Origin: Escherichia coli
Lineage (GTDB): Bacteria > Pseudomonadota > Gammaproteobacteria > Enterobacterales > Enterobacteriaceae
DNA: 64,000 nucleotides
Assembly (NCBI RefSeq): GCF_003334405.1
Contig: NZ_QOWM01000010.1
Strand: one strand, 5' to 3'
Part shown: in pieces, positions 451 through 53,568 of the stretch
How the letters are laid out: the number at the start of each line of letters is the position of its first letter
How positions within the stretch are numbered: the first letter of the stretch is position 1
Program-made: the position numbers and the translations under genes
The notes under the pieces: model-generated
What the model was told of the DNA's origin: nothing
Seen by the model: only the letters and a program-made list of their open reading frames with translations
Database searches by the model: none

Positions 451-530
451 AGAGCTCTCTCTTAGTTTAATTTCCGCCAGGTAATCAGATGACACGACTG
501 TGCTTCACGCCATCTATTAACATGTACGTC

Positions 531-562
531 AGTATATGGGGATGTTTCCCCCACATTCAACG
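531..562 (-). promoter_or_regulatory. sigma-32 type heat-shock promoter upstream of lon
   Basis: Minus strand reads TTGAAT-13 nt-CCCCATAT (plus 533..560), matching sigma-32 consensus CTTGAAA/CCCCATNT, about 85 nt upstream of the lon ATG. Confidence 0.6.
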
Positions 563-576
563 CCGAGAATAGAGGA

Positions 577-606
577 AAAATTAAAGGGGAGATAAAATCC
601 CCCCTT
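577..606 (-). terminator. intrinsic terminator after clpX
   Basis: GGGGGG-ATTTTATC-TCCCC hairpin on minus strand followed by TTTAATTTTT, just downstream of the clpX stop. Confidence 0.65.
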
Positions 607-637
607 TTTGGTTAACTAATTGTATGGGAATGGTTAA

Positions 638-4496: not shown

Positions 4497-4548
4497 ATAA
4501 AATCTTTAGCAACATACTGGAAAAGCGCCGACAGTTGCAAATGCGTTT

Positions 4549-4866
4549 TTACGCGATGCTTCCTGCTCCACGACAGGGAGGAGAGGCAAAGACGGTGTCC
4601 TGCAACCCTTCCCACTCCTTAATAGTGTAAGTATGCAGAGCCAGCGCATGAACGGTAGTAGAGAGTTCCTCCGCTAAAGTACTGTAAATCATTCGATGAC
4701 GATTCAGAAAACGTTCACCCGTAAAACGATCGCTGACCAGCACAACTTTAAAATGGCTTTCAGAGCCGGCTGGGACATTGTGACGATAGCTTTCATCCAC
4801 TACTTCGAGGAATACGGGTTGGAACGCCGCCCTTAATTTTTCTTCTATCCGCTCACGTATCATCAT
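4549..4866 (-). CDS. bolA: transcriptional regulator BolA (105 aa)
   Basis: ORF track 4549..4899; trimmed to ATG at 4866 so that the product starts [11 protein letters not shown] and is 105 aa, the length I recall for BolA. Confidence 0.9.
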
Positions 4867-12523: not shown

Positions 12524-12671
12524 CAAAACCTCTCTATTAAAAAGGTGCTACGGCACCTTTTTTCTTAGCATTAGAAACATATCCCTCTCGAAATATTTAC
12601 TAAAAAATCCGCATGTTTACCCCATTCGTTTGCCGCTTTACACTAGTCGCGAATTTAAAACAGAGGTGGTA

Positions 12672-43582: not shown

Positions 43583-46500
43583 AAATTCTCAGCCTGCGCC
43601 TGAAAAACCTGAACTCATTAAAAGGCGAATGGAAGATTGATTTCACCCGCGAGCCGTTCGCCAGCAACGGGCTGTTTGCTATTACCGGCCCAACAGGTGC
43701 GGGGAAAACCACCCTGCTGGACGCCATTTGTCTGGCGCTGTATCACGAAACTCCGCGTCTCTCTAACGTTTCACAATCGCAAAATGATCTCATGACCCGC
43801 GATACCGCCGAATGTCTGGCGGAGGTGGAGTTTGAAGTGAAAGGTGAAGCGTACCGTGCATTCTGGAGCCAGAATCGGGCGCGTAACCAACCCGACGGTA
43901 ATTTGCAGGTGCCACGCGTAGAGCTGGCGCGCTGCGCCGACGGCAAAATTCTCGCCGACAAAGTGAAAGATAAGCTGGAACTGACAGCGACGTTAACCGG
44001 GCTGGATTACGGGCGCTTCACCCGTTCGATGCTGCTTTCGCAGGGGCAATTTGCTGCCTTCCTGAATGCCAAACCCAAAGAACGCGCGGAATTGCTCGAG
44101 GAGTTAACCGGCACTGAAATCTACGGGCAAATCTCGGCGATGGTTTTTGAGCAGCACAAATCGGCCCGCACAGAGCTGGAGAAGCTGCAAGCGCAGGCCA
44201 GCGGCGTCACGTTGCTCACGCCGGAACAAGTGCAATCGCTGACAGCGAGTTTGCAGGTACTTACTGACGAAGAAAAACAGTTAATTACCGCGCAGCAGCA
44301 AGAACAACAATCGCTAAACTGGTTAACGCGTCAGGACGAATTGCAGCAAGAAGCCAGCCGCCGTCAGCAGGCCTTGCAACAGGCGTTAGCCGAAGAAGAA
44401 AAAGCGCAACCTCAACTGGCGGCGCTTAGTCTGGCACAACCGGCACGAAATCTTCGTCCACACTGGGAACGCATCGCAGAACACAGCGCGGCGCTGGCGC
44501 ATATTCGCCAGCAGATTGAAGAAGTAAATACTCGCTTACAGAGCACAATGGCGCTTCGCGCGAGCATTCGCCACCACGCGGCGAAGCAGTCAGCAGAATT
44601 ACAGCAGCAGCAACAAAGCCTGAATACCTGGTTACAGGAACACGACCGCTTCCGTCAGTGGAACAACGAACCGGCGGGTTGGCGTGCGCAGTTCTCCCAA
44701 CAAACCAGCGATCGCGAGCATCTGCGGCAATGGCAGCAACAGTTAACCCATGCTGAGCAAAAACTTAATGCGCTTGCGGCGATCACGTTGACGTTAACCG
44801 CCGATGAAGTTGCTACCGCCCTGGCGCAACATGCTGAGCAACGCCCACTGCGTCAGCACCTGGTCGCGCTGCATGGACAGATTGTTCCCCAACAAAAACG
44901 TCTGGCGCAGTTACAGGTCGCTATCCAGAATGTCACGCAAGAACAGACGCAACGTAACGCCGCACTTAACGAAATGCGCCAGCGTTATAAAGAAAAGACG
45001 CAGCAACTTGCCGATGTGAAAACCATTTGCGAGCAGGAAGCGCGCATCAAAACGCTGGAAGCTCAACGTGCACAGTTACAGGCGGGTCAGCCTTGCCCAC
45101 TTTGTGGTTCCACCAGCCACCCGGCGGTCGAGGCGTATCAGGCGCTGGAGCCTGGCGTTAATCAGTCTCGATTACTGGCGCTGGAAAACGAAGTTAAAAA
45201 GCTCGGTGAAGAAGGTGCGACGCTACGTGGGCAACTGGACGCCATAACAAAGCAGCTTCAGCGTGATGAAAACGAAGCGCAAAGCCTCCGACAAGATGAG
45301 CAAGCACTTACTCAACAATGGCAAGCCGTCACGGCCAGCCTCAATATCACCTTGCAGCCACTGGACGATATTCAACCGTGGCTGGATGCACAAGATGAGC
45401 ACGAACGCCAGCTGCGGTTACTCAGCCAACGGCATGAATTACAAGGGCAGATTGCCGCGCATAATCAGCAAATTATCCAGTATCAACAGCAAATTGAACA
45501 ACGCCAGCAACTACTTTTAACGACATTGACGGGTTATGCACTGACATTGCCACAGGAAGATGAAGAAGAGAGCTGGTTGGCGACACGTCAGCAAGAAGCG
45601 CAGAGCTGGCAGCAACGCCAGAACGAATTAACCGCGCTGCAAAACCGTATTCAGCAGCTGACGCCGATTCTGGAAACGTTGCCGCAAAGTGATGAACTCC
45701 CGCACTGCGAAGAAACTGTGGTATTGGAAAACTGGCGGCAGGTACATGAACAATGTCTCGCATTACACAGCCAGCAGCAGACGTTACAGCAACAGGATGT
45801 TCTGGCGGCGCAAAGTCTGCAAAAAGCCCAGGCGCAGTTTGACACCGCGCTACAGGCCAGCGTCTTTGACGATCAGCAGGCGTTCCTTGCGGCGCTAATG
45901 GATGAACAAACACTAACGCAGCTGGAACAGCTCAAGCAGAATCTGGAAAACCAGCGCCGTCAGGCGCAAACTCTGGTCACTCAGACAGCAGAAACGCTGG
46001 CACAGCATCAACAACACCGACCTGACGACGGGTTGGCTCTCACTGTGACGGTGGAGCAGATTCAGCAAGAGTTAGCGCAAACTCACCAAAAGTTGCGTGA
46101 AAACACCACGAGTCAAGGCGAGATTCGCCAGCAGCTGAAGCAGGATGCAGATAACCGTCAGCAACAACAAACCTTAATGCAGCAAATTGCTCAAATGACG
46201 CAGCAGGTTGAGGACTGGGGATATCTGAATTCGCTAATAGGTTCCAAAGAGGGCGATAAATTCCGCAAGTTTGCCCAGGGGCTGACGCTGGATAATTTAG
46301 TCCATCTCGCTAATCAGCAACTTACCCGGCTGCACGGGCGCTATCTGTTACAGCGCAAAGCCAGCGAGGCGCTGGAAGTCGAGGTTGTTGATACCTGGCA
46401 GGCAGATGCGGTACGCGATACCCGTACCCTTTCCGGCGGCGAAAGTTTCCTCGTTAGTCTGGCGCTGGCGCTGGCGCTTTCGGATCTGGTCAGCCATAAA

Positions 46501-48051: not shown

Positions 48052-48256
48052 TCATTACTTATTGCCGGATGCGGCGTGAACGCCTTATCCGCCCTACGCG
48101 GTTCTGGCACATTTTGCAGGCCTGATAAGACGCGGCAAGCGTCGCATCAGGCATCGGAGCACTTATTGCCGGATGCGGCGTGAACGCCTTATCCGGCCTA
48201 CGGTTCTGGCACCTTTTGTAGGCCTGATAAGACGCGGCAAGCGTCGCATCAGGCAT
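48052..48256. repeat. BIME cluster: two tandem ~100-bp units, each with a convergent pair of REP palindromes
   Basis: Unit A 48052..48153 and unit B 48160..48256 are near-identical (TTATTGCCGGATGCGGCGTGAACGCCTTATCCGGCCTACG ... GTAGGCCTGATAAGACGCGGCAAGCGTCGCATCAGGCAT). Confidence 0.8.
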
Positions 48257-52402: not shown

Positions 52403-52927
52403 TCAACAATTGATCGTCTGTGCCAGGGCGCTGCGAATTTCAGAAATCACCTGGCTGGGTTCGTTTGTTGCGTCGATGATAATATGCGCAACTTCGCGAT
52501 ATAGCGCATCGCGTTCTTCCAGCACTTCCTGAACTTCTTCGCTCAGCGGTTTTCCCGTTAAGGTTGGCCGTAAATCTTCTTCCGGTGCAGCTTGCAGTCG
52601 GTTAACCAGGACTGATACTGGCGCACACAAATAAACCACGATCCCGTTATTTTGCATGAAGTGACGATTAAATTCCGTCAGAATAATGCCGCCGCCTGTA
52701 GCGATAACGGTGGATGGCGCAGTTACCGCTTCCAGCGCCGCCGTTTCTCTGGCGCGAAATCCCGCCCACTCTTCCCTTTCGACGATCTCCGCGACCGTCA
52801 TATTGAGCTGTGATTGCAACCACTGATCGGTATCGACAAACCGACGGTTAAGCGAATCGGCAAGGGCCATTCCGACCGTTGTTTTACCACAGCCCCGAGG
52901 CCCGATCAGAAAAAGAGGTTGTGTCAT
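52403..52927 (-). CDS. aroL: shikimate kinase II
   Basis: ORF track 174 aa; Walker [10 protein letters not shown]. Confidence 0.96.
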
Positions 52928-52995
52928 CGTGGGTTTTCCCCAATAGGTCGCAATGCGGCGAAAGCCGGTGTCATGAGAATAGCGATCATACCATC

Positions 52996-53108
52996 AAACT
53001 AGTACAATTTCGATTGTAAAGAAAAAATTCCACTTAAAGTGAAAATCTCAATACACCCCTTACTATACCAATAAATATTCAAGAATGAAGTGTAAATAAT
53101 AAATTACA
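52996..53108 (-). promoter_or_regulatory. aroL control region: TyrR-box-like palindromes and a TrpR-like ACTAGT core
   Basis: TGTAAATAATAAATTACA (53091..53108, TGTAAA-N6-TTTACA-like), weaker TGGAATTTTTTCTTTACA on the minus strand (53015..53033), and AACTAGTACA at 52997..53006. Confidence 0.5.
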
Positions 53109-53109
53109 T

Positions 53110-53568
53110 TTAGCCACGACTACGTTGCACTTCCAGCCACCACTTCTCCAGCTCCGCGGCAAAGGCCTGGCGGTCACGTTGTGAAAGGCTATCTGGTCCG
53201 CCGGTCTGGATCCCACTGGCACGTAAGGTATCCATAAAATCGCGCATCGTCAGGCGCTCACGAATGGTCGCTGGCGTGTAACGTTCGCCGCGCGGATTAA
53301 GCGCCGCAGCGCCTTTCTCGATGGCTTCAGCAGCCAAAGGTATATCTGCGGTGATCACCAAATCGCCCGCTTCACACTGCCGGACAATTTCGTTATCGGC
53401 AACGTCGAAACCTGCCGCGACGCGCAGCGTACGAATAAATCGCGATGGCGGCACGCGTAAACTCTGGTTTGCTACCAGTACCAGCGGCATCTGCATACGT
53501 TCCGCCGCGCGATACAAAATCTCTTTAATTACATTGGGACACGCGTCGGCATCCACCCAAATTGTCAT
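53110..53568 (-). CDS. yaiI: UPF0178 protein YaiI (152 aa)
   Basis: ORF track 53110..53688 trimmed to ATG 53568 ([16 protein letters not shown]). Confidence 0.88.

Follow-up and report, generated by a model that had tools for sequence, protein, structure and literature searches.

We found that the 182-bp spacer between yaiI and aroL in this Escherichia coli sequence is very probably the known TyrR/TrpR promoter-operator region of the aroL-yaiA-aroM transcription unit. What was observed directly are the motifs, how rare they are, how their spacing is conserved and where they lie with respect to published transcription starts, in a stretch of 64 kb that was analysed as a whole (the window) and in the corresponding loci of other genomes. 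The region from 52300 to 53750 matches E. coli K-12 MG1655 at 100% identity, in reverse orientation, and each of the 5,426 complete E. coli genomes contains this MG1655-like stretch. A window position p converts to position 459,332 - p of NC_000913.3, and the length of the spacer follows from the end of yaiI at 406,222 and the start of aroL at 406,405 in that genome. Gene identities, orientation and placement of aroL, yaiI and proC had been given correctly in a preliminary description of this DNA, as judged from the list of open reading frames, the MG1655 match and the RefSeq annotation: proC is encoded divergently on the plus strand, and yaiA and aroM follow downstream of aroL.

TyrR boxes in the yaiI-aroL spacer

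Candidate TyrR boxes were scored against TGTAAA-N6-TTTACA, an 18-bp dyad with 12 arm positions; a box with at least 10 of 12 arm matches and the invariant G-N14-C is regarded as strong (PMC4374768). The genes and binding motifs of the region are the following, with the number of matches to the respective consensus.

53112..53110, minus strand: stop codon TAA of yaiI (open reading frame list, sequence and RefSeq annotation for the identical region in MG1655)
53108..53091, minus strand: distal TyrR box TGTAATTTATTATTTACA, 11/12, G-N14-C kept; NC_000913.3 406,224-406,241
53055..53038, minus strand: candidate weak TyrR box TGTATTGAGATTTTCACT, 8/12, G-N14-C kept; NC_000913.3 406,277-406,294
53032..53015, minus strand: proximal TyrR box TGGAATTTTTTCTTTACA, 10/12, G-N14-C kept; NC_000913.3 406,300-406,317
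53005..52988, minus strand: TrpR-like operator GTACTAGTTTGATGGTAT, 13/18 against the TrpR consensus; NC_000913.3 406,327-406,344
52403..52927, minus strand: coding sequence of aroL (shikimate kinase II), the regulated gene, with its ATG at 52927 (open reading frame list and RefSeq annotation of MG1655)

The TyrR-box palindromes that had been noticed upstream of aroL are thus present on direct reading, with 11/12 and 10/12 matches. On the plus strand, the distal box reads TGTAAATAATAAATTACA (53091..53108) and the proximal box TGTAAAGAAAAAATTCCA (53015..53032), the latter being TGGAAT-N6-TTTACA on the aroL strand. The G at position 2 and the C at position 17 are kept in both boxes and also in the 8/12 candidate, the centre of which is 23 bp from the proximal box. 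Distal and proximal box are 76 bp apart, which corresponds to about seven helical turns. The TGGAAT-N6-TTTACA box had been called the weaker one, which is true relative to the 11/12 box; by the published threshold it nevertheless counts as strong, because 10/12 matches with G-N14-C reach it. Both boxes show the published properties of strong boxes, and they are located in the promoter region of aroL, a TyrR-repressed gene. We take the distal 11/12 box to be 'box 3' of Lawley & Pittard and the proximal 10/12 box to be their 'box 1', while the 8/12 candidate is, we presume, possibly 'box 2', an assignment that is tentative because the candidate is poorly conserved.

The distal box is the sole match with at most one mismatch to the TyrR consensus in the 64 kb, where 0.12 such matches are expected, and 11 of 100 shuffles of the 64-kb window contained at least one. 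Matches with at most two mismatches number four in the window against 2.4 expected, so that the 10/12 box on its own is unremarkable. Further 10/12 matches are TGCAAATGCGTTTTTACG and AGTAAATACTCGCTTACA on the plus strand (4536..4553 and 44523..44540), a number that fits chance; by coordinate arithmetic we take the first to coincide with the end of bolA and the second to be internal to sbcC. Since the spacer is AT-rich (35% G+C), dinucleotide-preserving shuffles of its 182 bp (n = 20,000) served as the local control. A box with at most one mismatch arose in 0.15% of these 20,000 shuffles, and such a box accompanied by another one, not overlapping it and with two mismatches or fewer, arose in none of them (0/20,000). 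For the combination of boxes in the spacer, chance is not the explanation.

The distal box had further been described as abutting the 3' end of yaiI, so that termination of yaiI and regulation of aroL would share sequence. The first statement is correct and the second is not borne out, because one base (53109) separates the stop codon from the box; the palindrome begins 2 nt after the stop, and the two have no base in common in the window. This closeness would suit an AT-rich palindrome that acts as a terminator or 3'-end element of yaiI, instead of or besides being an aroL operator, and so would E. coli EC2341 (NZ_CP072976.1), whose yaiI frame ends inside the palindrome. In that strain the stop TAA is CAA (equivalent of 53104..53112) and the annotated yaiI is therefore two codons longer, ending at a TAA within the left arm of the distal box, so that coding sequence and operator overlap there. 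We consider a terminator function very improbable, however: the interval 52700..53400 holds no terminator-like site, the palindrome has neither a G+C-rich stem nor a T run, and RNA of 53135..53070 folds no better than its shuffles (-8.3 kcal/mol, z = -0.27). The palindrome at the distal box does not form a stable RNA hairpin. In addition, the distance from the yaiI stop to the box differs among species, while the spacing from box to box is kept. The 125-nt leader of aroL likewise folds no better than shuffles (z = -0.76), and no Rfam family was matched in the yaiI-aroL region. Elsewhere in the window, Rfam matches were obtained for the sRNA sraA (522..617, plus strand, 106.7 bits, full model length) and for naRNA4, nucleoid-associated noncoding RNA 4 (48119..48198, minus strand, 79.8 bits).

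The TrpR-like site and conservation of the spacer

A TrpR-like element with an ACTAGT core, which the preliminary description had placed next to the TyrR boxes, is present as seen and reads TGTACTAGTT on the aroL strand (53006..52997) and AACTAGTACA on the plus strand (52997..53006). Its extent had to be revised, as the site runs to 52988, 8 nt past the start it had been given. The whole 18-mer lies 27 bp downstream of the proximal TyrR box and is the best match in the window (13/18) to the TrpR consensus used for the scan, GTACTAGTTAACTAGTAC; a match as good occurs in 0.6% of the spacer shuffles. The published operator consensus is GTACTAGTTAACTAGT (PMC2811016), and compared with GTACTAGTTAACTAGT(AC) the two halves are unequal, with 9/9 matches on the left and 4/9 on the right, where ATGG stands in place of the expected CTAG. 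The good half, GTACTAGT (53005..52998, minus strand), is not significant by itself, because 0.48 copies are expected per window and one is found. CTAG is about 18-fold under-represented in the window, with 14 copies against 249 expected from base composition, and ACTAGT occurs in it at 12642 and 52998 only.

Conservation was assessed in relatives obtained by a contig scan with an over-general P-loop pattern, which yielded four usable enterobacterial aroL loci among the matches listed (mostly Actinobacteria): Escherichia albertii, Citrobacter werkmanii, Citrobacter sp. FP75 and Superficieibacter electus. These four are fairly close relatives. In all four relatives yaiI lies directly upstream of aroL, and their AroL proteins are 59-94% identical to that of E. 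coli. A box at the distal position near the yaiI stop was found in all five species with 10/12-11/12 matches, and a box at the proximal position, 74-76 bp away from it, with 9/12-11/12; every one of these orthologous boxes keeps G-N14-C. A block GTACTAGTTTGATrrTAT follows 27-28 bp beyond the proximal box in the five species. Invariant alignment columns are distributed as follows, first among all five species and then among the four species of Escherichia and Citrobacter.

TrpR-like block: 15/18; 16/18
Proximal box: 10/18; 13/18
Distal box: 8/18 (Superficieibacter misaligned by 2 nt); 16/18
-10 TATGAT: 4/6; 6/6
-10 TATAGT: 0/6; 6/6
8/12 candidate: 2/18; 5/18
Whole spacer: 27%; 54%

The TrpR-like block is the best-conserved part of the spacer among the five species. 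In E. albertii, at the equivalent of 52998, the GTACTAGT half-site reads GTACTAGC, with the final T replaced by C and the CTAG core kept.

These data also bear on the view that the motifs are nothing but chance matches in an AT-rich intergenic spacer. Such a view can point to 10/12 matches that occur at the chance rate (4 against 2.4) and to the 0.48 copies of GTACTAGT expected per window, but it does not account for a pair of boxes that is absent from all 20,000 spacer shuffles, for an 11/12 box that is unique in 64 kb, or for motifs and spacing that are kept across genera while the flanking spacer diverges. Together with the documented regulation of aroL by TyrR, conservation effectively refutes this view, to which we attach a next to negligible probability.

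Among E. coli genomes, the spacer shows 97-100% identity, and five divergent strains have essentially unchanged box arms and an essentially unchanged stretch from the proximal box to the ATG. E. coli 18AR0366 (NZ_CM132283.1) carries an IS1A in the spacer at the equivalent of 53057..53065, with a 9-bp target duplication, TAGTAAGGG. The distal TyrR box and the -35 lie on one side of the element, and aroL with its TrpR site and proximal box on the other. With IS1A between the boxes, any TyrR loop should therefore be abolished in this strain.

Transcription starts and promoters

We take the classical aroL start to be situated about 125 nt upstream of the ATG, where it would equal the distal site listed below, and we assume an offset of 776 bp between versions 2 and 3 of the MG1655 coordinates. 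This offset agrees with the ptsG entry in PMC3798280 Table 1. The same table gives two aroL starts that were mapped by primer extension, at 405,579 and 405,504 of MG1655 version 2, and the RNA for the proximal one, window position 52977, came from anaerobic cultures (PMC3798280). The starts and their promoters are located as follows.

53089..53062, minus strand: inferred distal sigma-70 promoter, -35 TTCATT (53089..53084), 16-nt spacer, -10 TATAGT (53067..53062); placed from the start at 53052
53052, minus strand: distal aroL start, version 2 405,504, version 3 406,280; 125-nt leader; the PMC3798280 primer maps to 52982
53013..52985, minus strand: proximal sigma-70 promoter, -35 TCGAAA (53013..53008), 17-nt spacer, TG before the -10 TATGAT (52990..52985)
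52977, minus strand: proximal aroL start, version 2 405,579, version 3 406,355; 50-nt leader; the PMC3798280 primer maps to 52912

The proximal promoter, TCGAAA-17-TATGAT, is the single promoter-like match of a consensus scan in 52700..53400 and agrees with the start at 52977, and the distal -35 TTCATT was too weak to be reported by that scan of the same interval. The -35 and -10 hexamers upstream of the distal and the proximal mapped start are thus 16 and 17 nt apart, within the 16-18 nt of a sigma-70 promoter. Of 16 predicted RNA-polymerase sites in the study that mapped the starts, seven are unannotated in RegulonDB, and these sites are unnamed (PMC3798280). Relative to the distal (53052) and the proximal start (52977), respectively, the motifs occupy the following positions.

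11/12 box: -56..-39; -131..-114
8/12 candidate: -3..+15; -78..-61
10/12 box: +21..+38; -55..-38
TrpR-like 18-mer: +48..+65; -28..-11

The 11/12 box thus lies directly upstream of the weak distal -35, and the TrpR-like 18-mer covers the spacer of the proximal promoter and part of its -10, so that it overlaps the core promoter of the proximal start (-28..-11) and not that of the distal one (+48..+65). The operators had been described as upstream of aroL; seen from the distal start, however, the transcribed leader contains both the 10/12 box and the TrpR site, so that these two are not upstream of that promoter. The distal box is centred at -47.5 as counted from 53052, and the proximal box at -46.5 as counted from 52977.

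These positions allow a more specific proposal, which we put forward tentatively, as a possibility more apt to fail than to hold: aroL might be built from a pair of promoter-operator modules, with a TyrR box centred about 47 bp ahead of the start in either module, in which TrpR directly occludes the proximal promoter only and in which TrpR control would become visible only when the proximal promoter contributes, for example anaerobically. If true, an action of TrpR on the proximal promoter alone would reconcile conflicting reports on TrpR control of aroL. A tandem duplication as the source of two box-plus-promoter modules was considered and rejected, with 12/48 positions identical outside the boxes, no better than in shuffles. 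An IHF site has reportedly been proposed for the aroL region; the IHF core WATCAANNNNTTR was not found in the yaiI-aroL spacer with at most one mismatch.

The overlap of the TrpR-like block with a promoter raises the question of what its conservation reflects. The block GTACTAGTTTGATGGTATGAT could be kept mainly as the core of the proximal promoter, comprising its spacer and an extended -10 (TGnTATGAT), with weak binding of TrpR and little physiological consequence. In line with this, the poor TrpR half, TTGATGGTAT, is conserved as well as the good half, the block overlaps the -10 of a promoter that was both found by the scan and provided with a primer-extension start, and in a 2025 preprint neither aroL transcripts nor a P_aroL reporter responded to trpR. 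However, GTACTAG falls into the -35/-10 spacer, where no set sequence is needed, and yet it is invariant in the five species, the sole exception in this part being the last base of GTACTAGT, where E. albertii has C instead of T. CTAG is moreover a strongly avoided sequence (14 against 249 expected), and reviews and databases give aroL as a TrpR target. We judge conservation mainly as a promoter core to be rather unlikely; it is in any case compatible with a TyrR/TrpR promoter-operator region, our main explanation, and not exclusive of it. The substitution of GTACTAGT by GTAGTAGT, with TGGTATGAT unchanged, is the one that would separate operator from promoter function.

Repression of aroL by TyrR and TrpR

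That the operator question at aroL has already been studied is evident from two titles, Lawley & Pittard 1994 (J Bacteriol 176:6921) and Heatwole & Somerville 1992 (J Bacteriol 174:331); these two and DeFeyter et al. 1986 are the primary footprint and mutagenesis papers on aroL. The first reportedly describes three TyrR boxes at aroL, protected by TyrR against DNase I, with a TrpR site adjoining box 1. In these two studies, boxes 1 and 3 are reported to be essential and box 2 dispensable, phased DNase hypersensitivity reportedly suggested a loop, and TrpR is said to protect a site beside box 1, with an effect that needs TyrR. This classical layout matches the layout found here.

More recent literature documents that TyrR as well as TrpR represses aroL in E. 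coli, and confines TyrR control of aroL/aroLM to the Enterobacteriales and TrpR control to few close relatives (PMC5343134; PMC3473263). Repression of aroLM is ascribed to TyrR hexamers that block RNA polymerase (PMC10170061), and aroL is up 4.7-fold in a tyrR mutant of Y. pestis (PMC4325908). A 2025 preprint reports that aroL is derepressed upon CRISPRi knock-down of tyrR, and found no effect of trpR on aroL, neither in transcript counts nor with a P_aroL reporter. The dual TyrR/TrpR repression that the preliminary description had assumed for aroL is accordingly supported, by the documented targets (PMC5343134, PMC3473263), the box criteria and conservation, with the caveat of the missing trpR effect in the preprint.

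For protein binding, looping and the interplay of TyrR and TrpR at aroL, we draw on this literature or infer from the arrangement of sites. The two good TyrR boxes bracket the distal promoter with its start at 53052. Tyrosine and ATP convert TyrR into a hexamer, and this hexamer could bridge both boxes, possibly together with the poor box between them, so that the promoter would be looped out or occluded and aroL repressed. Tryptophan-bound TrpR may bind its one-sided site weakly and add a small repression that would depend on TyrR, either by stabilising the TyrR complex or by directly blocking the proximal promoter.

The closest known system is the aroL-yaiA-aroM promoter-operator of E. coli K-12 itself, the same locus with a sequence 100% identical in MG1655; a pair of good boxes, a poor one and a TrpR site beside the proximal box agree with the layout reportedly mapped there. 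At aroF-tyrA and tyrP, strong and weak TGTAAA-N6-TTTACA boxes likewise occur near or over the promoter, and tyrosine-induced TyrR hexamers occupy several of them and exclude RNA polymerase. In contrast to these, the good boxes of aroL are not side by side but bracket the promoter at a distance of 76 bp, an arrangement that implies looping of the DNA instead of simple cooperativity between adjacent sites. The other E. coli promoter under TyrR and TrpR, that of mtr, resembles aroL in having boxes and a TrpR operator in one control region. The roles differ, however: TyrR activates mtr and TrpR is its dominant repressor, whereas aroL is repressed predominantly by TyrR, with a minor or undetectable contribution of TrpR. 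With the operators of trpEDCBA, aroH and trpR, the aroL site shares the GTACTAGT half-site and the CTAG core. Those operators overlap -35 and -10, which at aroL is true for the proximal promoter, and they are near-symmetric (consensus GTACTAGTTAACTAGT), unlike the aroL site with its one good half (9/9 and 4/9).

The feature described here is the already known control of aroL by TyrR and TrpR, and its confirmation adds no new biology; the sole addition to the known layout is that the proximal start reported in 2013 (PMC3798280) puts the TrpR site over a promoter core. It does show that operators can be recognised from the letters alone. When strains are engineered for aromatic amino acids, the control region of aroL is a standard one to deregulate, and aroL serves as a textbook example of how two amino-acid repressors converge on one gene of the shikimate pathway. 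TrpR may act on the leader of the distal transcript or on the separately mapped proximal promoter, and which of the two it is could explain why its effects on aroL are detected in some studies and missing in others.
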